Of a stretch of 64,000 nt of DNA, positions 29,679 to 49,201 are shown piece after piece. The stretch is from a virus, in IMG/VR virus record IMGVR_UViG_3300042889_001061, positions 32,001 to 96,000 of that record. One strand, 5' to 3'. The notes beneath the pieces are model-generated. The model worked only from the letters and a program-made list of their open reading frames with translations. It made no database searches and had not been told where the DNA came from. The position numbers and the translations under genes are program-made. How positions within the stretch are numbered: position 1 is the first letter of the stretch; each line of letters begins with the position of its first letter.

Positions 29679-30803
29679 ATGAAAACAGCAGACAATGTAA
29701 AAAAGACAATTTTATTTTATCAGCCAGATAGATATACTCGGCATGCAGATAGCATCGTGGCAGATGCATATCTCGAAGAACACATTCTTTGTAATTTTTT
29801 AATTGCACTTACCTGGGATGATTTTGTCAGTAAATTAAACTTAAACCCTGACTTAGTGGGTTTTCACTGTGATTTATTTGACAACGAAGAATTAAGTATT
29901 CATCAATTAATAAAAGCAATAGAAATAACTCTCAAGCTAAAAAATAACCAAGCAGATATTTTTGTAAAAGTTAATAAAAAAACTTGTCGAGAAACTATTG
30001 ATATGTTGAGAAACACAAACATCATAGGTCTGCAATTTGATCGGGGAGACTTTGGTTTAGAATATGCCACAGAATCCTTTCGAAAATTACTAACAGATAG
30101 ACATCATTGGCCTGAAGAAGTTATTGCTACATCGTTAGAACATCAAGAAAATAAACGACCTTTGCACGTTTATTTTAGAGATGATATGGAGGTATATTAT
30201 GACCCAGTAAGATTTGTAGAAGTAACAAAAGATATTAATGCTAGATTTCTAATGTGTAAAAGTTTGAATGAGTTAAGTATAGCATTATCCGAGCGTCCTA
30301 AGAATCTTGTATTTCATATAGACATGGTTAGACGGCATGGCGGAACAATATCAGAGTTTATGATGATGTTAGAAACTATGACGAAATACACTAATACAAA
30401 AATTAAACCTAACATCGGTGTTGGTATAGAAGCAGATACACATTTATCGACAATTAAAGAATTACAAAAACACAGAATACTGGCAATAGTACCAAGTGCA
30501 AAAACATTTGGCACAACTAGTACTCGCAGTGCCATAGAAGTAATGCTGAATAATGAATCGCATTGGCCCAAAGACATTATCAGTACTCTTCCTGGCAATG
30601 AAAACAAAGTAAAAAATAAAAATAATAATGCCCTAACAATTAGACAACAAGAAGTATTTGATCTAATTGCTAAACGAGGTCTAAGCAACAAGCAAATCGC
30701 CAGAGTGCTAAATATATCTGAGAGCACAGTTAAGATTCATGTCAGCGCAGTCATGAAGAACCTTTGTGTTAGAAATAGAACACAATTGGCCTTAACGAAA
30801 TAA
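29679..30803 (+). CDS. LuxR/NarL-family regulator with two tandem degenerate receiver-like domains
   Basis: C-terminal LTIRQQEVFDLIAKRGLSNKQIARVLNISESTVKIHVSAVMKNL..RNRTQ; internal duplication (LVGFHCD..HWPEEVI / LVFHID..HWPKDII). Confidence 0.88.
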   Translation: MKTADNVKKTILFYQPDRYTRHADSIVADAYLEEHILCNFLIALTWDDFVSKLNLNPDLVGFHCDLFDNEELSIHQLIKAIEITLKLKNNQADIFVKVNKKTCRETIDMLRNTNIIGLQFDRGDFGLEYATESFRKLLTDRHHWPEEVIATSLEHQENKRPLHVYFRDDMEVYYDPVRFVEVTKDINARFLMCKSLNELSIALSERPKNLVFHIDMVRRHGGTISEFMMMLETMTKYTNTKIKPNIGVGIEADTHLSTIKELQKHRILAIVPSAKTFGTTSTRSAIEVMLNNESHWPKDIISTLPGNENKVKNKNNNALTIRQQEVFDLIAKRGLSNKQIARVLNISESTVKIHVSAVMKNLCVRNRTQLALTK

Positions 30804-30991: not shown

Positions 30992-31546
30992 ATGGCTGAC
31001 ATGTTAACAACAGATCCCTTCTTCGCACTTACAAATCAAGTAGCTGGCGTAAGAGAGAAAGTTTCCGATAGCATTTTCGAAAACTACAAACTACAAGTTG
31101 CTCAAACCAACGACATCAACAACCGTGCTATGCAAGTTGCATTACACGATGCTACTGAACTATCTACTATCAAGCAAGAAATTGCTAATGGCACGCTTCA
31201 GACTATGTTGGCTGCTAGTCGTACAGACGCACAGATCGGTGCCACAAGTGCTGCTCAACAACGTTTGATCATGGAACAAGCAGAAGCTACACGTCGTTTA
31301 ATCGTCGACTTGAACACACAAAACTTGAACACAGCGTTGATCAACACAAACACAGCATTGACTGGTTTGGGTGTATCATACGGTGGTTTAGGTCTTGCAT
31401 ATGGTGGCGCAGTGAGTGCTTACCAAAGTGCTAACTCTACATCAGCAATCAATGCATTGAACAGCGCAATCGCTAGTCAAGGTATGGTTACTGTAGGTGC
31501 TGGCGCAGTAGGCGGTACACAAACTGCTACACCAACAAGCGTTTAA
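30992..31546 (+). CDS. Ala/Gln/Thr-rich helical protein with Gly-rich tail
   Basis: Strong SD; tail GAGAVGGTQTATPT shared with 31818 ORF. Confidence 0.7.
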   Translation: MADMLTTDPFFALTNQVAGVREKVSDSIFENYKLQVAQTNDINNRAMQVALHDATELSTIKQEIANGTLQTMLAASRTDAQIGATSAAQQRLIMEQAEATRRLIVDLNTQNLNTALINTNTALTGLGVSYGGLGLAYGGAVSAYQSANSTSAINALNSAIASQGMVTVGAGAVGGTQTATPTSV

Positions 31547-31565: not shown

Positions 31566-31751
31566 ATGTATCCATACTTAGGCGGATATGGTAGAGGCTT
31601 GGGGGGATTCCCTCGAGGCTATCTAGGAGCTGGCATAGGATATCCCTATCAAGGCTTCTGGGGCTACCCAGGTTGTGGTTGGGGCTACCCAGGTTATGGC
31701 ATTGGCTGCTACGGCGGTTATGGCTATGGTTATGGCGGCGGCTTACTATAA
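31566..31751 (+). CDS. Gly/Tyr-rich small protein (spore-coat-like composition)
   Basis: AGGAGG SD; GYPG/GYG repeats. Confidence 0.7.
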   Translation: MYPYLGGYGRGLGGFPRGYLGAGIGYPYQGFWGYPGCGWGYPGYGIGCYGGYGYGYGGGLL

Positions 31752-32039: not shown

Positions 32040-32780
32040 ATGTATATCAGAAGCACTACACCAAAGCCAACTCCATTACCAGAAAAAGAAAAGTTGTGGA
32101 TTACAGTTGACCCAGATCAACCCAATGGTGATTGTGAACCTCTGCCGCCCGTTGAATTAAAAAATAAAATAGGCGCAACCGATCCATTACCAAGTGTAGT
32201 AATAAATGAAGCTACTATGACATTTAGAATGAATAGTAGAACATTATGGACAAAATACGCATTAGGTCTAGTTAATTTTGCTGTCAGTGATGTTGCCGAC
32301 TTACCCACAACAGACAGTGTAGAACAACGTATGTATAAATCATCTACACTGATAGGTGATTTCTTTGTTCCTTATTATGGTATTCGTGCAGGCAGTGATA
32401 TTGCAAAATTGCTAACTGAGATATTTAAAAATGGTGTTGATGTAGTTGCCGCAGTTAAAAAACAACAAGACACGGTTCCATATCAAATTAAATGGGCAGA
32501 ACAAACAAAAGAACTTGCTGAATTGTTTAATAAATTAAACCCAAGTCAATACCCAACTTCATTATTACAAGAAATGTTAGATGCTTTAACTAAGTTATGG
32601 TTAGATAACATCATTGCTAGATATACTAACAATATTATTCTTAATGCTGAAAGTATAGATGGCATTAACAAATTAGTTATCACTGGTATTGCTAATCACG
32701 TTAACAAAGGTTATCAGAGTTTAGCAGATGTGTTAAGTCGTGGAGTTATTGCTCAATATCCATTATCATTTTTGGAATAA
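32040..32780 (+). CDS. Helical-bundle protein resembling the Firmicutes 'LW..H..W...PYYG...NP...GI..QFP' family
   Basis: RTLW, PYYG, W.....LA..F..LNP, LADVLSRGVIAQYP; paralog at 36428. Confidence 0.55.
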   Translation: MYIRSTTPKPTPLPEKEKLWITVDPDQPNGDCEPLPPVELKNKIGATDPLPSVVINEATMTFRMNSRTLWTKYALGLVNFAVSDVADLPTTDSVEQRMYKSSTLIGDFFVPYYGIRAGSDIAKLLTEIFKNGVDVVAAVKKQQDTVPYQIKWAEQTKELAELFNKLNPSQYPTSLLQEMLDALTKLWLDNIIARYTNNIILNAESIDGINKLVITGIANHVNKGYQSLADVLSRGVIAQYPLSFLE

Positions 32781-32783
32781 GAA

Positions 32784-33023
32784 ATGGCGATAATAAACGT
32801 TCAGTCTAACAAGAATATTGAGTTTTTAGACTTAGAAGTTCACGCTGTCATGTGTGAACAACGACGTCTTGCACTAGAAGAAAAAATTAATTCAGTTGCA
32901 CTTCGTATCAACGATTATGAACAGCAACAACTAGCAAACAAAAGATTAATGCTAGGTGCAATAGTTTCTATTGCTACGGGCATTATCACAACAATAGTGT
33001 CTTTAGTAGGGAGGAATTTTTAA
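32784..33023 (+). CDS. Coiled-coil plus C-terminal TM small protein
   Basis: LEVHAVMCEQR; hydrophobic tail. Confidence 0.6.
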   Translation: MAIINVQSNKNIEFLDLEVHAVMCEQRRLALEEKINSVALRINDYEQQQLANKRLMLGAIVSIATGIITTIVSLVGRNF

Positions 33024-33024
33024 A

Positions 33025-33642
33025 ATGAATCAACTTGAAATAAACAGACAACGAGCACAATTATTAACAACAGCAAGAAATATGCTCAATGAAGAATATC
33101 AACGACAACGCAGTGAGCAATATACTAAGTGGCAAAGCGAATCAAATCACCTATGGATATCAAAAGGTATAATGTTGCCATATCCTAGTTCTTTTGGTTA
33201 TCCCACTGAAGAAGAAGTTGTTGCAAAAGCATTAGAATTATATAACACACAAAATAATAAACCAGTATCAAACACTGGTGTCGAATTACCTAAAACAGAT
33301 GAATCAATGACTTCATCTGTGACAGCAAAACTAATGGAAGTTAGTCACAATGTTCGACCGGTTGTAATGCCAGAAGTACCTGATGTAACACCTTGGGAAC
33401 AATACTTGGTGCCTGAACCAATTAAACAACCAGTACCGATTGTAGAAGAACCTGTAATAGAAGATGTTGTTGCCAAGGAACCCGAACTAATCGTAGAAGA
33501 GGAAGTAGCAGAACCTGAACTAACAGAAGAACAAATAGAAGAAGTAAAAAGTAATTCTAGATTAAGAGGGTTACTGGCACAATTTATTACCATGGCTAAA
33601 GGGCTTGATGCCAAAGCCCAAAAAGATGAAGGAACAAAATAA
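33025..33642 (+). CDS. Hypothetical protein, N-terminal domain paralogous to 38802 ORF, Glu/Pro-rich linker
   Basis: R.QLL..AR.ML...W...[11 protein letters not shown]. Confidence 0.65.
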
Positions 33643-34142
33643 TGTTTAATAATTTATTATTCAATAGAAGACCATTAAGAAGAGTTATTCGTCGTCCAGT
33701 ATATAGACGTCCTATAATTAATCAGTATGGCGGCAATGGCAGTGATATATTTTATAACAGCGGTGGAGGAGTTGGACCACCAGGGCCACCAGGGCCACCA
33801 GGGCCACCAGGACCACCAGGGCCACCAGGGCCACCAGGGCCTCCGGGCACACCAGGATTAGTGCCAGTAACCGTAGTAAACACAAGTCCTTATATTGCTT
33901 TACCCACTGATTATGATCTTGCTGTTACTGCTAACGCAGTTATACCTGCCAGCATAGTGTTACCAGCAAGTCCTGTTGGAACTGTTTTTATTGTAAAAGA
34001 CGCCGCAGGAGTGGCAAATATAAATTCAATCACAGTATCTGCCATAGCATCGACTATTGACGGAGCAGCCAGTGCTGTTATCGATGCTCCATATGGTAGT
34101 TTACAATTTATATTCAACGGCATAGAATGGAACATAGTATAA
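33642..34142 (+). CDS. Collagen-like protein with basic N-terminus and C-terminal beta domain
   Basis: (GPP)8-GTP; Arg-rich leader; IVKDAAG...IDG...PYGSL..FNGIEW domain. Confidence 0.85.
33774..33854 (+). repeat. 9-bp tandem repeat encoding collagen triplets
   Basis: gg(a/g)ccacca x7 plus two variants. Confidence 0.9.
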
Positions 34143-34693
34143 TGGCATACAAAGCACCACTTGCTTCAACAACCGATTTTGGAATTATGAAAGTCGGCAC
34201 CGGTTTATCAGTTACTGATGGAACCGTTAACGCATCAACCGGCTTACTCAATTATGGATTTTTTGAAAACGGAACACAAACTAATCCAGTGGCCAGTGCA
34301 ATTAATTTAGCATCATTTAGTATAACTGGTCCAGCAAATGGAATTAGTATAGTTGGTGGTACTCAACTTACAGTAGTCAACGCTGGAACATACAACACGG
34401 TGTTTACAATGAATGTAAACAAAACATCCGGTGGCGCCAGCACTATTAGCATATGGCTACGTCTAAATGGAGCAGACATTGCAGGCTCAGCACAAGATTT
34501 AATTTTAACAGGAGCATTGGATACAATCTTCGTTACAGGCAATTATACATTGGATATACCTGCAGGAGGCAATATAGAAATATGCTGGAGTAGTGCTGAC
34601 ACTACCATGCAGTTATTGGCATTGCCAGCAAGAGTTGGTCCAGTGCGTCCAAGCGGCGCCAGTGTAAAAGTTACACTAACAAGAATTAGTTAA
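34142..34693 (+). CDS. BclA C-terminal/C1q-like beta-sandwich protein
   Basis: GIS......LTV..AGTY..VF..N...IWLRLNG.DI.GS...ASV..TRI pattern. Confidence 0.55.
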   Translation: MAYKAPLASTTDFGIMKVGTGLSVTDGTVNASTGLLNYGFFENGTQTNPVASAINLASFSITGPANGISIVGGTQLTVVNAGTYNTVFTMNVNKTSGGASTISIWLRLNGADIAGSAQDLILTGALDTIFVTGNYTLDIPAGGNIEICWSSADTTMQLLALPARVGPVRPSGASVKVTLTRIS

Positions 34694-34702
34694 GGAAATA
34701 AT

Positions 34703-35062
34703 ATGTCTGCAAATTTAAACACAAAAATAGTTACAACAACACCTTACACCGTGTTATCATCAGATGAAGTAATTTTTATGAATGTCCTTGGACCATCGTC
34801 TGTTATATTGCCAGCCAATGGCCTGGCCACAGGTGAAGATTGTTGCGGCGATGATGATGACGACTACAACGGCAAAAAAAAGCCAGTGCTAAAGCGTTCA
34901 TATTACATCAAAGATATTTCAGGTAACTCGGCAGCGAACCCAGTTACTATTACATCAGCAGGATCCAAGTCCATTGACAGCAATCCATTTGCAATCATCA
35001 ATGGCGGATATGGTCATATACAGGTAGTGTATGACGGTACAAACTGGAAGATTATAGGATAA
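34703..35062 (+). CDS. Beta-domain protein, paralog of 33642 C-terminus and 35103
   Basis: PYTV..SDEVI..LPA...IKD.SG....P.TI...ID...GYG....YDGTNW. Confidence 0.7.
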   Translation: MSANLNTKIVTTTPYTVLSSDEVIFMNVLGPSSVILPANGLATGEDCCGDDDDDYNGKKKPVLKRSYYIKDISGNSAANPVTITSAGSKSIDSNPFAIINGGYGHIQVVYDGTNWKIIG

Positions 35063-35102
35063 TCATTCCAATTAAAATTAGTTAATATAAAGGAAAACTA
35101 AA

Positions 35103-35507
35103 ATGTCATATACAAATAACCCAACGTCGATACTTGCCGGAGCAGGTATTACAGTATCACCAACAACAGGTACAGGTGCAAATACAATTACTCTTAGTGC
35201 CAGTGGTATTAATCCTGTGGCAGTTAGAGTTGCAGTTGCAACTCCAGTCGTGGCCAGTGCAACCACAGATGAAGTAATCAGCGTACAAGTTCCTGGTCCA
35301 GTTGCTGTGGCAGTTACATTGCCAGCAGGTGTTGCCGGTAAAGTATTCACAATCAAAGACGGACTAGGATTGGCTGCACCAGCAACACCTATTACTATTA
35401 CACCAACAGTCCCTGACACAGTAGATGGCGCCGCCACTGCTACAATTGATGCACCATTTGGTTCATTGACATTGGTCTTTGATGGCGCACAGTGGATACT
35501 AGTATAA
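35103..35507 (+). CDS. Beta-domain protein, paralog of 34703
   Basis: DEVISV...LPAG..GKVFTIKDGLG...ITI...VDG...PFGSLTLVFDGAQW. Confidence 0.7.
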   Translation: MSYTNNPTSILAGAGITVSPTTGTGANTITLSASGINPVAVRVAVATPVVASATTDEVISVQVPGPVAVAVTLPAGVAGKVFTIKDGLGLAAPATPITITPTVPDTVDGAATATIDAPFGSLTLVFDGAQWILV

Positions 35508-35508
35508 T

Positions 35509-35787
35509 ATGTACAAAAGAATCACTCATACGATTGTCGAGGAACATTTCGACCATCCTGAGGCAGTAGCAATGGCAGCCGAATCTAAATCTAAAGGTAA
35601 AGCCCCATTGCGCTATTATGCTGACGGCCAACAGATAGCATCTGATTTACCGCAGTCTTATCAATTAGCAGTAGGAGAAAATCGCTGTGGCAATTGTCTA
35701 GCATTTGACCCAACTAGAAACGTTTGTAAGCAATGGATGTTACCTGTGCGAGCAGACTATGTTTGTGCCGCATGGACAGTAATTTAA
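35509..35787 (+). CDS. Small protein with shared leader and HiPIP-like Cys motif
   Basis: MYKRITHTIVEEHFDHP leader; CGNC...C...W....V.ADYVC.AW. Confidence 0.6.
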   Translation: MYKRITHTIVEEHFDHPEAVAMAAESKSKGKAPLRYYADGQQIASDLPQSYQLAVGENRCGNCLAFDPTRNVCKQWMLPVRADYVCAAWTVI

Positions 35788-35799
35788 AAGGATAATAAA

Positions 35800-36417
35800 A
35801 TGGGAATTATAAGAAGACCTGAGCCACTTAAAGTCAAACTAGAAGATGTAGATACTCCTGTGGAAAACGAAGTAGTATGTATAGTCGAAGAAAGCGATGA
35901 TGGTAACATTATTGAAATAATATGTGTACCAGAAGAATTTCTCGAAAAAGTCAAACCAGTAGAAGAAGTTCGAGCAGAATTTAAACCCAAGGCTGTGGTA
36001 ACTTCTACTGCCACTGGGGAACAGTTCGGAACTTGGATTCCCGTTTTGCGTAGTACAGGCACAATTGATGTTAACATTAGAAATGCTTTTTATACAAAAG
36101 TTGGACAGTTAGTAACCTGTACATTTGATATAATAGTTACTAACATGTCTGAACGAAATAATTCTTCTATAACGCTGAATGGACTGCCAATTAACAGTAT
36201 AAATTCTCAGGGAATAGCAGGATCTGCTCATTTATCTTATTTTAAAACGCCAACCAATGAATTAACTCATATAAGTGGCACAATAAACGGCAACGATACT
36301 AGAATAGATTTGTGGTGTGAACGACATGGTCGCAAAGGACTATTACCGTTAACTCAACAGGATATTCAAATCAACACAGTTCTAGCAGGAACTGTAACTT
36401 ATATTACAAATTCTTAA
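35800..36417 (+). CDS. Protein with acidic N-terminus and fiber-tip-like beta domain
   Basis: GTWIPVL...YTKVGQLV...LNGLP resembles phage fiber C-terminal domains. Confidence 0.55.
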   Translation: MGIIRRPEPLKVKLEDVDTPVENEVVCIVEESDDGNIIEIICVPEEFLEKVKPVEEVRAEFKPKAVVTSTATGEQFGTWIPVLRSTGTIDVNIRNAFYTKVGQLVTCTFDIIVTNMSERNNSSITLNGLPINSINSQGIAGSAHLSYFKTPTNELTHISGTINGNDTRIDLWCERHGRKGLLPLTQQDIQINTVLAGTVTYITNS

Positions 36418-36427
36418 GGAGAATATT

Positions 36428-37120
36428 ATGTACAAAAAAATTACGCACAACATAGTCGAAGAGCACTTTGACCATCCCGTAGCCAGTCAGATTAAGAAAT
36501 CTATGACTAGATCTAAAATTCCTAATAATGAAGTTTTTTCAGAAATCAAATTTAGATCAGATATAAACTCATATTTCGAAAACTATAAATCACGAATTAA
36601 TTCTATGATCAACAGTGCAACTGGCACTGAAGAAGATTTAATTAAACCATTTGAAGAAATATTCAACAACTCTTGGGTTGATGGTCTTGGCAACATGACC
36701 AAGCCCATATACTTCAGCGAATTAGGTGAAAGAATTAATTCTGCTTTTAGAAGTTTTCCTGTGACTTTATTAATAATGATACAACTCTTAAAAACTGGAA
36801 GAGATATAACTGCGTCAACTCGTAGATTTGTAGGTGCCAGGGATGACTTGTCAATAGCATTAAATAATTTTAATCCGGCTTGGCAAAATACAGCAATAAG
36901 CTCGTTGTTTACGACCATTACAACTGAAATGATAAATCAAGTTAAAGCTCGATTGAAAAAAGATTCCAATGCTGAATTACAATCTGCACAACAAATTGCT
37001 CAAGCATTCGAAACATTTGAAAATGCATTTGTAAATGGAATAATCAGTCAACATCCAGAAAGATTTTCTATATCAACTCCTGTGATTGCTCCAACTTCTT
37101 ATAATAGAGATATAATGTAG
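36428..37120 (+). CDS. Helical-bundle protein with shared leader; paralog of 32040
   Basis: MYKKITHNIVEEHFDHP leader; L..FNP.W, GIISQHPERF. Confidence 0.6.
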   Translation: MYKKITHNIVEEHFDHPVASQIKKSMTRSKIPNNEVFSEIKFRSDINSYFENYKSRINSMINSATGTEEDLIKPFEEIFNNSWVDGLGNMTKPIYFSELGERINSAFRSFPVTLLIMIQLLKTGRDITASTRRFVGARDDLSIALNNFNPAWQNTAISSLFTTITTEMINQVKARLKKDSNAELQSAQQIAQAFETFENAFVNGIISQHPERFSISTPVIAPTSYNRDIM

Positions 37121-37128
37121 ATTATAAA

Positions 37129-37875
37129 ATGTATGCCAAAGATTTTAGAGTAAGAGCTGACCCCGCAGACCGGCGAGATCGTTATTATAATTTTGCCAGA
37201 ATAGAACAGCCCAGGAACTATGTCGATCTTCGACCCTGGGCTAGTCCTGTGGAAGATCAATTACATCTAGGAAGTTGTGTTGGACAAGCAGTTGTAGGCG
37301 CCTATGAATTATTATTAAACAAGTCGGATAGAACCAAGTTTACGGACCTAAGTAGATTATTTGTGTATTACAATGCACGTTTGTTGGATAATTCAATAGA
37401 CGAAGACGTGGGTGCTTATGTTCGAGATGGAATTAAAGCTGTAAACAAATACGGAGTTTGCAGTGAACAGTCGTGGCCATACTTAATAAAACGATTTACA
37501 GATGCTCCTAGTGTTCAAAGCTACGAAGATGCTCGTCGTAGATTGATAAAAAAATATTATAGAATAGAAAGTATAAAAGATATAGTCGATGCACTAAACG
37601 CAGACTGCCCTGTGGTCACTAGTTTTAATGTCTATAACAGCTTTGATGATTTAGAATATTCAGGCAATCACGTATTGCCAATGCCACAAGCCAGCGAAAA
37701 CTTAATTGGTGGTCATGCTGTTACTTTTGTAGGCTATGATTTATCAAAGAAATTGTTTTTAGCAAGAAATAGTTTCGGTACAGATTGGGGTATGGACGGA
37801 TACTTTTGGGTACCCTTTGACTATGCAGAAAAAGACTTTATGGATAGCTGGGTATTTGACATCGAACTAATTTAG
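37129..37875 (+). CDS. Papain-family (C1A) cysteine protease
   Basis: VDLR, DQLHLGSC, SRLFVYYNAR, GGHAV..VGY, RNSFGTDWG..GYFW. Confidence 0.92.
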   Translation: MYAKDFRVRADPADRRDRYYNFARIEQPRNYVDLRPWASPVEDQLHLGSCVGQAVVGAYELLLNKSDRTKFTDLSRLFVYYNARLLDNSIDEDVGAYVRDGIKAVNKYGVCSEQSWPYLIKRFTDAPSVQSYEDARRRLIKKYYRIESIKDIVDALNADCPVVTSFNVYNSFDDLEYSGNHVLPMPQASENLIGGHAVTFVGYDLSKKLFLARNSFGTDWGMDGYFWVPFDYAEKDFMDSWVFDIELI

Positions 37876-39506: not shown

Positions 39507-40031
39507 ATGGATTTAAAGCAAATAATTAGAACAGTGAATGATTTTCCTAAACCAGGAGTTAAGTTTTTAGATGTAACTAGTATACTAGAAAATCCAATGG
39601 CATTTAGAAAAACAATTAATTGGCTGATTAAAGTAGCGGCAGCTCATGAAATTGAAAGTATCGTAGCAATTGATGCTCGGGGATTTATTTGGGCGGGCGC
39701 TGTTGCCAATGAACTACGTTGTCCATTACATCTTGCACGGAAGCCAAGCAAGCTACCTGGCAATATAGTTACTAACACCTACGACACAGAATACAGTACT
39801 GCCAGCTTGAGCATGTTAAAAGACATAAAAATTAAAGGTCCAGTAATGATCATAGATGACATACTGGCCACTGGCGGAACATTAAATGCCGTTGGAGAAA
39901 TGCTACATCGAGAATTTCAAATCGAGCCCGAGAATCAAATCCATACTGTAATTGCCAACTTAGATTTTCTACCCGGTAAACAGTTTTTAATCGATAAAGG
40001 TTATATAGTCAAGAATTTGATTAATTACTGA
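39507..40031 (+). CDS. apt: Adenine phosphoribosyltransferase
   Basis: DFPKPGVKFLD, DARGF, RKPSKLPG, IIDDILATGGT. Confidence 0.93.
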   Translation: MDLKQIIRTVNDFPKPGVKFLDVTSILENPMAFRKTINWLIKVAAAHEIESIVAIDARGFIWAGAVANELRCPLHLARKPSKLPGNIVTNTYDTEYSTASLSMLKDIKIKGPVMIIDDILATGGTLNAVGEMLHREFQIEPENQIHTVIANLDFLPGKQFLIDKGYIVKNLINY

Positions 40032-40879
40032 CCAACTCTAATTTTATGTCTGTCAACGGCAGAACGGCACCACAGCATGGGACACGCAAAAGACAAGTCA
40101 GGTGCTTGCCAATCCTCGTCAAATACGTTTCTTATATCCCTGCCACCGCATTCACTGCCAGATGCAAAGCCTTTATGACTGATGCGTAAAAAATCAATGC
40201 CTGCATAACATTGTTTTCCTGTATAGCTAGGACTGTTGTCTTTAGGAGGCTCGTTCAACGGAATGTACACAGGAGCCTGTATGACCACAGGTACTTGATA
40301 ATCTTCAGGCAAGCCCTGTATTAAATTAATATCTTTAATACTGTAACCTGACCAATAATTATTTCCATCTTCATTTTTTAAAATTTGTTCCTCTACTCCA
40401 ATTTCTAGGCTAGATAACTCAACAACTTTTTCCCTGCATTCTTTGATCTTACCAGGCATTAATGGTACCATAATTCTTATTTTTTTATCATTTTCTTTAC
40501 ACAAGTCGACGATATATTCTAACACGCTTGAGTTTTGCCAATGATGATGTGTTACCTTTAAGTAGTCTACATAGTTGATAATTTCCATTACTCCAAACCA
40601 ACTGTCTCCACCAGATGTGTCCAATCTAACATAAGATTCTTTTTCTTTTATTTTTCTAAGTAATAAATTTAAGTTGGGGAAATGCAAGGGCTCGCCGCCA
40701 CTTAATGTCCATTTAATTTTATCACCGTGCTGATATCTAGTTTGTTGTAGCTTTTCCACCACGCCTAAATATTGATCTAAAGTTCGAGTTAATTCGCCAC
40801 CACTCCATTTACTGGGGCAGTATTCACAGTCATGTTCGCAATAACTATTGAGTTTCCAGTTGATTTCTAAGGTTTTCAT
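40025..40879 (-). CDS. Radical SAM protein
   Basis: CEHDCEYC, SGGEP, C-terminal CYAG...C..C....C. Confidence 0.85.
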   Translation of the reverse strand: MKTLEINWKLNSYCEHDCEYCPSKWSGGELTRTLDQYLGVVEKLQQTRYQHGDKIKWTLSGGEPLHFPNLNLLLRKIKEKESYVRLDTSGGDSWFGVMEIINYVDYLKVTHHHWQNSSVLEYIVDLCKENDKKIRIMVPLMPGKIKECREKVVELSSLEIGVEEQILKNEDGNNYWSGYSIKDINLIQGLPEDYQVPVVIQAPVYIPLNEPPKDNSPSYTGKQCYAGIDFLRISHKGFASGSECGGRDIRNVFDEDWQAPDLSFACPMLWCRSAVDRHKIRVGQ

Positions 40880-47809: not shown

Positions 47810-49201
47810 TTAGACAGGGCTGTGTCTTGCTAAATTAGCAAGAGGTTGCTCTAACATTATATCAGGGCAATGTCTTGCTAAGATGTCATGTACTTCTGGC
47901 AAGACCTTTCGCCAGTTGGTGCCCCTGATTTTATCTAGTTTGTCCATTACTGTTACAAATTCTTGATATTTTTTTGAATTTTCTCGGTCTATATATTTTT
48001 CTAATAATTTAATAATTGCTTTATACCACTTGGTGCGATTTTCTGTATGATGCATTAAATTTTTATAATGTTCGATGATTTCTTCCTTGGCCGATCTTGG
48101 TAAAGATCGCAGATCTAACCAAGCTGGACCTTCTAAAAATCTAAATTCTGCAGGGACGTCTAGTTCTTCGGCAACTTCAACTATTCGTTCTATAGAGTAT
48201 ATAGACGCGAGTCCTATACAACATGAAAGATAACGTATACTCATACCATTTTCTTTAATAGTTTTTATGTTCTTAACAATATTATTATAATTTCCCGGAA
48301 AACGAATAAGATTGTATCTTTCCTCCACGTCGTCGAGACTAACACAAAAGTCAATATTCTTAAAGAATTTAAATTTTTCAATAATCTTATTATTGATTAC
48401 AGTTAAATTTGTATCGTATCGCAGTGTAATATTTTTTGCAAAATCCCTTGCTATTAAACGATTTAATATTTCAGTCATAGCAGGAGAAATCAACGGCTCG
48501 CCACCGGAAAAATAAATGTATCTCAAGTCGGGTGCAATCTTATCAAAACGTTCCCACCAAATATCACTTTCCCACCATTTCGAATAATCTAAAATCTCTC
48601 GACCTTTGGTATCTGTGGTCATCCTATAATCTTTGTCACCCCACTCAGTACCCGCCGGCGTAACTTGGACATCGCCCCAAAGTTTACTCCAATCTTCATA
48701 CCAAAGACTGCTGTATTCAGGACTGCACATTATACATTTTTGATTGCATAAATTGCTCAATCGAAGGCCTAAATTTACAACCTTGGCAGTTGAAGTACCA
48801 TCGGGTAATGTATATTGATCGGCCTGATCCCAGCGGACATATTCTGGAATCCGTTTAGTCATATGCCTATTGACTCGTTGTCTTTTACTCTTGCCCCATT
48901 TTTTAACATCTTCGTCGCCTGGCACATCAAGGCCTTTAGTGCTATGCTCAGCATCATAACAATTACGACATCTCGTTACTTTAATATTTTCTTTAAGTTG
49001 TAATCGATGATTTTTATGGGTTACACTATTAATAGCCTCTTCTATGGAATGGGTCATGACATTCATTACGTTGCCATTCTCATCATGCGCCATTCCATAA
49101 TCTTTATTATAATTTGCCAGGCAACATATTTTATAGTCACCGAGTGTGTTGATTTCTATTTGGCTCCACAACTCGCCACAAAAACTTTCTAAATTAAACA
49201 T
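47810..49201 (-). CDS. Radical SAM protein with twitch/SPASM-like domain
   Basis: N-terminal C...ICC...CRNC; CNQKCIMC; FSGGEPL. Confidence 0.88.
   Translation of the reverse strand: MFNLESFCGELWSQIEINTLGDYKICCLANYNKDYGMAHDENGNVMNVMTHSIEEAINSVTHKNHRLQLKENIKVTRCRNCYDAEHSTKGLDVPGDEDVKKWGKSKRQRVNRHMTKRIPEYVRWDQADQYTLPDGTSTAKVVNLGLRLSNLCNQKCIMCSPEYSSLWYEDWSKLWGDVQVTPAGTEWGDKDYRMTTDTKGREILDYSKWWESDIWWERFDKIAPDLRYIYFSGGEPLISPAMTEILNRLIARDFAKNITLRYDTNLTVINNKIIEKFKFFKNIDFCVSLDDVEERYNLIRFPGNYNNIVKNIKTIKENGMSIRYLSCCIGLASIYSIERIVEVAEELDVPAEFRFLEGPAWLDLRSLPRSAKEEIIEHYKNLMHHTENRTKWYKAIIKLLEKYIDRENSKKYQEFVTVMDKLDKIRGTNWRKVLPEVHDILARHCPDIMLEQPLANLARHSPV

Follow-up and report, generated by a model that had tools for sequence, protein, structure and literature searches.

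Why should two otherwise unrelated proteins of one phage begin with nearly the same 17 residues? The question is raised by the IMG/VR virus record IMGVR_UViG_3300042889_001061 (111,144 bp; CheckV completeness 32%), of which we analysed bases 32001–96000, a stretch of 64,000 nt that we call the window. Because the contig encodes a tail sheath, a tail tube, a large terminase, a gp32-like single-stranded DNA-binding protein, UvsX, a DnaB-type helicase, a primase and a ribonucleotide reductase, and because its tail sheath is 44–46% identical to the sheaths of the jumbo phages PA5oct, Atu_ph07 and Phosso, its source is an uncultured T4-like jumbo myovirus. Two genes in the window share the N-terminal peptide that we call the tag: one encodes a 92-residue protein with four cysteines (the Cys4 protein), the other a 230-residue helical protein (helical A; Table 1). 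An earlier sequence-only reading of the window had described the two leaders as identical. That they are shared is clear; full identity does not hold, as 15 of the 17 residues agree and two differ (R4K and T8N). The same reading had the proteins diverging completely after the leader, and this we could confirm: a BLASTP comparison of the two proteins aligns residues 1–33 only (19/33 identical, E 6e-11), and the remainder is unalignable. Within their 51 coding bases the two tag copies show many third-position differences. Fuzzy scanning of all six frames across the 111-kb contig returned these two copies and no others. Chance or recent duplication as the origin of the likeness is ruled out by the pairwise E value of 6e-11, the synonymous divergence and the hundreds of copies found elsewhere.

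The tag is conserved far more strongly than its cargo. Homology searches yielded 72 relatives of the Cys4 protein and 127 of helical A, nearly all of which begin with it; the consensus reads MYKKITH-x-I-x-EEHF-D/G-HP and is followed by a short semi-conserved linker (hydrophobic, Ala, x, Glu/Gln, Ile, Lys). Across the 72 Cys4 homologues the four cysteines and the tag core are invariant. As these searches were word-seeded and could favour the tag, we ran as a control HMMER with residues 31–230 of helical A only, the tag being removed, against 1.84 billion representatives. This search gave 76 phage-type full-length cluster representatives with body identities of 22–45%, and the tag was present on 74 of the 76. 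M1, Y2, K3, I5, T6, H7, I9, E11, E12, H13, F14 and P17 are each retained in 64–74 of these 74 proteins, and positions 8, 10 and 15 alone vary freely; I9 is found in 73 and E11 in 72, with the variable position 10 between them. Furthermore, selection acts at the peptide level, since all synonymous codons are in use across 150 distinct DNA copies of the tag and the tag DNA has no match in Rfam. The same conclusion had been drawn earlier from the synonymous differences between the two copies in the window. Freely varying third positions and the empty Rfam result likewise rule out an RNA or DNA element.

We then asked how far the tag extends beyond this contig. Degenerate DNA patterns located it in 12 IMG/VR loci and in at least 120 metagenome loci; with more than 130 tagged viral loci in total, all on related environmental phage fragments, the motif is widespread in other genomes, whereas its absence there would, in the view of the sequence-only reading, have refuted a portable tag. 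No tag was found when degenerate patterns were searched in 185,579 bacterial and archaeal genomes, and tblastn of both tagged proteins, the 184-residue protein encoded nearby and a 24-residue tag peptide against 50,697 isolated phages returned neither the tag nor its surrounding genes. Within the library of papers searched, the 17-residue motif does not occur. At the four variant-tag loci L147–L150 there is a single tagged gene each. Covariation of tag variants within a genome (such as Ala15 shared by both copies) was considered as well and is not used here, about three lineages speaking for it and about four contradicting it.

The proteins that carry the tag are of at least six kinds across the loci. 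Among the matches listed there are approximately 107 distinct tagged helical proteins, which form two subfamilies, and 27 tagged Cys4 proteins. At one locus (L142) the tag sits on a homologue of the papain-like protease encoded downstream of helical A in the window; other carriers are an acidic helical domain (L086), a His/Met-rich 62-mer (L012), a 380-residue low-complexity protein (L037) and a few short singletons. The acidic domain, which in L086 forms a free-standing tagged gene, is absent from the contig of the window. Fusion proteins of 167–184 residues were also seen (L014, L023, L042, L069, L088, L117, L132, L139), in which a leaderless Cys4 domain is followed by an internal tag-like motif and then by the acidic helical domain. 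Cys4-acidic fusions with the internal motif come from six loci, or about four sequence-distinct lineages; in a seventh fusion locus, of a separate lineage (L024), the motif has been lost.

To place the tag relative to the folded parts of its carriers we inspected AlphaFold2 models of both window proteins. In helical A (mean predicted local distance difference test score, pLDDT, 87.6) the block-mean pLDDT is 90–98 across residues 31–210 and about 50 for residues 1–30; the model has seven helices, which bears out the earlier description as a helical bundle. In the Cys4 protein the block-mean value is 84–90 for residues 41–90 and again about 50 for residues 1–30. Residues 1–16 are without secondary structure at a pLDDT of about 50 in both models, so that the tag is predicted to be disordered and to lie outside both folds. 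This rules out that the tag is part of a larger folded domain common to the two proteins, and it agrees with the earlier proposal of a portable leader on unrelated proteins. Altogether, the tag is a real, previously undescribed, virus-only and portable recognition peptide.

What might such a peptide be recognised by, and to what end? The explanation we prefer, with a probability of roughly 0.42, is that it is a docking tag for loading into the virion or prohead, similar to the capsid targeting sequence (CTS) of T4 and probably trimmed by a protease. Here we infer a partner, a destination and a cleavage step. The 17-residue N-terminus, disordered alone, would be read by one common partner, which would gather at one place a few unrelated proteins encoded by the same gene cassette: the Cys4 protein, one or two seven-helix bundles and, in some phages, also the papain-like protease, the acidic helical domain or short peptides. 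The likeliest destination would be the assembling virion, notably the interior of the prohead, as with the CTS on T4's internal proteins. There a head protease of the gp21 type could trim the tag at its conserved I-x-E, or else the adjacent papain-family (C1) protease could do so. Helical A may carry the untagged protease along; the overlap of the helical A gene by the protease gene, seen in many loci, suggests translational coupling.

Two known systems resemble this arrangement. The internal proteins of T4 have only a CTS in common (PMC3012670), and gp21-type proteases cut at (L/I)-x-E (PMC5694885), a pattern that the near-invariant I9 and E11 with the variable position 10 match. Like the CTS of IPI, IPII, IPIII and Alt, an N-terminal peptide of 10–20 residues on otherwise unrelated proteins of a T4-like phage, the tag is conserved while the bodies behind it diverge and includes a triplet of the kind cut by gp21 (PMC3012670, PMC5694885). 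Unlike the CTS, to which it has no sequence similarity, it is longer and constrained at nearly all 17 residues; moreover, the tagged genes stand in a cassette that begins with a LuxR-type regulator and also encodes fibre-like proteins and a papain-like protease, neither beside head genes nor behind a T4-type late promoter. In the jumbo phage SPN3US, gp53 and gp54 are 34% identical overall and have an identical N-terminus of 15 residues (PMC5694885). They too are diverged proteins with a conserved N-terminal peptide containing head-protease motifs, which the authors read as CTS-like (PMC5694885); gp53 and gp54 are, however, paralogues and proven virion components processed by gp245, whereas the cargo described here consists of unrelated families whose place in the virion is putative.

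Several observations weigh against delivery to the head. By our estimate an I-x-E triplet is expected by chance in about one of seven 17-mers, and the residues that follow it in the tag (HF-D-HP) are equally conserved. The tag-like motif persists internally in the Cys4-acidic fusions, which a strictly N-terminal signal would not need. Each fragment has one to three tagged genes, all of them within one cassette, so that the partner could be encoded by the cassette instead of being a general head scaffold; the cassette itself lies outside any head module and has its own LuxR-type regulator. The 111-kb fragment and five related ones (all 11–32% complete) show no capsid protein, portal, scaffold core or head protease of the gp21 type (Peptidase_S77), and the head protease of the clade is therefore unseen; PA5oct, the nearest isolate by tail sheath, encodes a gp21-type Peptidase_S77 (E 7e-25). 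Finally, the T4-type late promoter TATAAATA occurs at G000 11567 (outside the window), 34 nt ahead of the tail sheath gene, and 35 nt ahead of the gene at G000 1662, but neither the cassette nor the regions upstream of it contain this promoter; this is weak evidence, as few promoters are known for this phage.

If the tag is nevertheless an address, proteins bound for the same destination would be recognisable from sequence alone in an uncultured but widespread clade of jumbo phages from freshwater and the sea, and the 17-mer would be a ready handle for loading foreign proteins, a purpose that the T4 CTS has already served. What sets the system apart is a tag far more conserved than its cargo together with a tight linkage to a papain-like protease in a regulated cassette. 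Identifying the partner of the tag would also reveal what the cassette does.

The Cys4 protein offers a possible link to the head. Behind the disordered tag and linker its domain is beta-rich, and the sequence-only reading had called it similar to high-potential iron-sulfur proteins (HiPIPs). Foldseek does place HiPIPs at the top, weakly (probability 0.90, E 0.19–0.29), and Pfam gives no match for the 92-residue window protein, the HiPIP family PF01355 included; we retain the name HiPIP-like in this tentative sense. With the family profile of the Cys4 domain, hhalign gives a match (94.9%, E 4e-8) to the S78 prohead protease of Pontimonas phage phiPsal1, at the N-terminal domain of the enzyme. 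In that protein (L145 3809–5263) the Cys4 HiPIP-like domain occupies residues 51–115 and Peptidase_S78 residues 256–409; the phiPsal1 homologue itself scores 16.1 bits against PF01355, the cut-off being 22. At least one phage therefore has a homologous domain on its prohead protease, a type of enzyme that works within the prohead, and this homology would tie the Cys4 protein to the head. Among isolated phages the phiPsal1 Cys4 domain has no other match, and a search for longer fused forms of the domain found none.

For the fold of helical A, Foldseek and VIA-align give generic helical bundles only (best Z 9.1, within the noise of helical proteins), and there is a weak Pfam match to TENA/THI-4 (E 0.036). 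The window encodes a distant paralogue, helical B, which had been reported to lack the leader. This is correct for the present genome and does not hold as a general trait: because orthologues of helical B in other phages have the full tag or intermediate decayed forms, its absence here looks like lineage-specific loss or decay. In distant bacterial homologues of the helical body a Sec-type signal peptide stands in the place of the tag, in some of them together with a cupredoxin fusion. The tag therefore occupies the slot of a targeting signal, which we count in favour of the docking explanation. One may also ask if it is a non-classical signal for localisation to, or export into, the host envelope, replacing the Sec or Tat signals of the bacterial relatives. 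HiPIPs are periplasmic proteins, and the cassette encodes a tail-anchored membrane protein of 79 residues with a sub-threshold Pfam match to XhlA, a membrane protein associated with prophage lysis (E 0.003; 18.1 bits, the cut-off being 34.7). However, the tag is charged and His-rich and contains neither a hydrophobic core (10 residues or more) nor a twin-arginine motif, no transporter is encoded in the cassette, and release by lysis requires no signal; we hold an envelope signal to be very improbable.

Five cellular-looking homologues of the helical protein (P0238, P0244, P0256, P0262 and P0266, relatives of window 36518–37117) have signal peptides, and the domain is often duplicated in them; two of the cellular-looking homologues end in a C-terminal cupredoxin domain. 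They point to an uncharacterised extracytoplasmic family that may be related to copper.

The neighbour most closely associated with the tag is the C1 protease. Its assignment is firm: it matches Pfam Peptidase_C1 (PF00112) with E 2e-15 (57.9 bits, cut-off 20.7) and PDB entry 3ois with E 2.8e-36, and its translation includes GSC, GGH and NSFG, the catalytic Cys, His and Asn motifs; against C39_2 it scores 20.6 bits, under the cut-off of 24. In 56 of 63 loci the gene immediately upstream of the protease gene is tagged and co-oriented with it, the commonest arrangement being a 1-nt overlap. The tag could hence be a propeptide or recognition site for this enzyme, which would bind it, cut it off or cut the fusions apart, its role being maturation and not transport. 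Such a role would suit several observations: outside the fibre families, the protease alone accompanies the tag down to the minimal cassettes, the internal tag-like motif lies between fusion domains as in a polyprotein linker, and the tag on the protease of L142 could be an autoprocessed propeptide. Yet the loci were selected by their tag, so that the co-occurrence of tag and protease is partly ascertainment; the internal motif has been lost in one fusion lineage (L024); and a cleavage site alone does not account for the near-invariance of about 14 residues, C1 peptidases usually reading few. On balance we consider a maturation signal unlikely. Under the docking explanation the locus L142, in which no tagged helical gene precedes the self-tagged protease, fits co-delivery. 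In Burkholderia phage FLC9 the protease homologue stands outside any comparable cassette.

A related comparison is with double-glycine leaders and their C39 peptidases, which have the papain fold. In both cases an N-terminal leader occurs on diverse products beside the gene for a clan-CA cysteine peptidase. Unlike those leaders, the tag has no Gly-Gly site; the peptidase here is of family C1, with C39_2 below threshold, there is no ABC transporter, and the cargo consists of folded proteins of 90–250 residues.

Tagged genes are always found within one conserved cassette, whose gene order is kept in more than 40 long loci (coordinates in Table 1). It begins with a LuxR/GerE regulator, followed by one to three copies of the 184-residue protein with Gly/Tyr-rich peptides, helical B (tagged in many phages), the 79-residue membrane protein and a 205-residue protein; then come several fibre-like beta-domain proteins, the Cys4 protein (tagged or not), a beta-domain protein, tagged helical A and the C1 protease. 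Minimal cassettes consist of the regulator, two beta-domain proteins, the Cys4 protein, tagged helical A and the protease only. The beta-domain family has 226–254 members in 95 loci, with weak PHROG matches to tail-fibre and baseplate proteins and C1q-like relatives in freshwater phages; the collagen match of one member is below the Pfam cut-off (E 1.3e-4).

Table 1. Tag copies, cassette genes and promoter-like sites (window coordinates unless marked G000).
Feature	Position	Strand	Remarks
Tag copy 1	35509..35559	+	codons 1–17 of the Cys4 gene; starts MYKRITHTIVEEHFDHP
Tag copy 2	36428..36478	+	codons 1–17 of the helical-bundle gene (helical A); starts MYKKITHNIVEEHFDHP
LuxR/GerE-type helix-turn-helix regulator	29679..30803	+	head of cassette; Pfam GerE E 8e-16; first cassette gene in 30 loci
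184-residue protein	30992..31546	+	Ala/Gln-rich, helical; most conserved cassette protein
Helical B	32040..32780	+	untagged paralogue, starts MYIRS; distantly related to helical A (E 6e-4)
79-residue protein	32784–33023		coiled coil and C-terminal membrane anchor; present in 39–43 loci
Four fibre-like beta-domain proteins	33642..35507	+	one with collagen repeat; between helical B and Cys4 gene
Cys4 protein, 92 residues	35509..35787	+	predicted disordered tag and linker (1–30), then Cys4 beta-rich HiPIP-like domain (~33–92)
205-residue beta-domain protein	35800..36417	+	encoded between the tagged genes; clusters into the same beta family
Helical A, 230 residues	36428..37120	+	predicted disordered tag and linker, seven-helix bundle; gene always just before the protease
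Papain-family (C1) cysteine protease	37129..37875	+	begins 8 nt after the end of the tagged helical gene
Promoter-like module sites (upstream regions)	47493, 49537, 59354, 59619, 62151, 62657; G000 6166, 25230, 25513		

The constancy of this cassette invites another explanation, namely that the tag loads cargo onto something the cassette itself builds, be it a fibre, a matrix, a coat or a compartment. The 184-residue protein, the Gly/Tyr-rich peptides and the collagen/C1q-like proteins would be its material, and the tag would act like the encapsulation peptides of bacterial microcompartments or like exosporium leaders. The tag is confined to the cassette, which has a conserved order, its own regulator and no T4-type late promoter. 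In addition, the 184-residue protein, often present as two or three tandem copies, has a median identity of 78% (minimum 66%) over 36 loci as compared with 29–60% for the cargo, a level that would suit a structural subunit or a docking surface; Pfam, PHROG and PDB give no match for it, and the ESM Atlas gives unnamed viral clusters only. This protein could be the docking surface; yet the minimal cassettes L109, L112, L134, L141 and L147 keep the tag without it and without the 79-residue membrane protein and the 205-residue protein. Nor did Pfam and PHROG reveal a microcompartment, encapsulin or other shell domain among the cassette proteins scanned, the short open reading frames at 31566, 31818 and 34703 not all having been scanned in every library, and the structure itself is hypothetical. 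We regard a cargo-loading role of this kind as rather improbable. Marginally less credible still is its stronger form, in which the product of the cassette would be an assembly separate from both capsid and tail (a cross-linked fibre, a matrix or a compartment) with the 17-mer as its dedicated loading signal, hypothetically delivering a redox-type Cys4 protein, the helical proteins and the papain-like protease. Were it true, microcompartment or exosporium targeting would have a counterpart encoded by a virus.

The analogy to exosporium leaders and encapsulin targeting peptides, drawn already in the sequence-only reading, thus stands as a resemblance and no further. Microcompartment and encapsulin peptides dock unrelated cargo to one assembly, and like the tag they are short, portable, terminal and joined by a flexible linker. 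The cassette proteins scanned include no shell protein, unlike those systems, and encapsulin peptides are mostly C-terminal.

Lastly, the tag might not be an address at all and have an intrinsic function, either as a metal-binding helix (through H7, E11, E12, H13, D15 and H16) or as the site of a modifying enzyme, for instance of the radical-SAM/SPASM type. The tag is rich in His, Glu and Asp, the cargo has a metal or redox flavour (the HiPIP-like Cys4 domain, the His/Met-rich peptide, the cupredoxin-fused bacterial homologues), and four radical-SAM genes are present on the contig. Against this, the non-ligand residues Y2, K3, I5, T6, I9, F14 and P17 are equally conserved, and a divergent lineage (P0210, P0213, P0230, P0232) keeps the Y-K-K-I-T core and replaces the histidines. 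The radical-SAM genes, moreover, lie approximately 2–30 kb from the tagged genes: the nearest, of 284 residues, is about 2 kb beyond the cassette and has a homologue within the flanks of only 4 of 133 loci, and the other three are some 10–30 kb from the tagged genes. There is thus no adjacent radical-SAM/SPASM maturase of the kind that accompanies a leader of ribosomally synthesised and post-translationally modified peptides, and an intrinsic motif appears highly unlikely.

The four radical-SAM genes of the 111-kb fragment are at window 40025–40879 (the nearest one) and 47810–49201, both on the minus strand, and at G000 105036–106451 and 108967–110217; two of the four encode a SPASM-type domain N-terminal to the radical-SAM core. 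Related fragments (G001–G003) have one to three radical-SAM genes each.

Two further observations concern promoters. The octamer TATAAATA is under-represented in the window, with 2 occurrences (13757 and 24154) against 7.3 expected. A different, promoter-like module recurs about 55–60 nt before small genes (Table 1): TTGACA overlapping a CACAAATTGG box, then TATAAT, then ACATACATAG. From its composition it looks like a phage-specific class of early or middle promoters.

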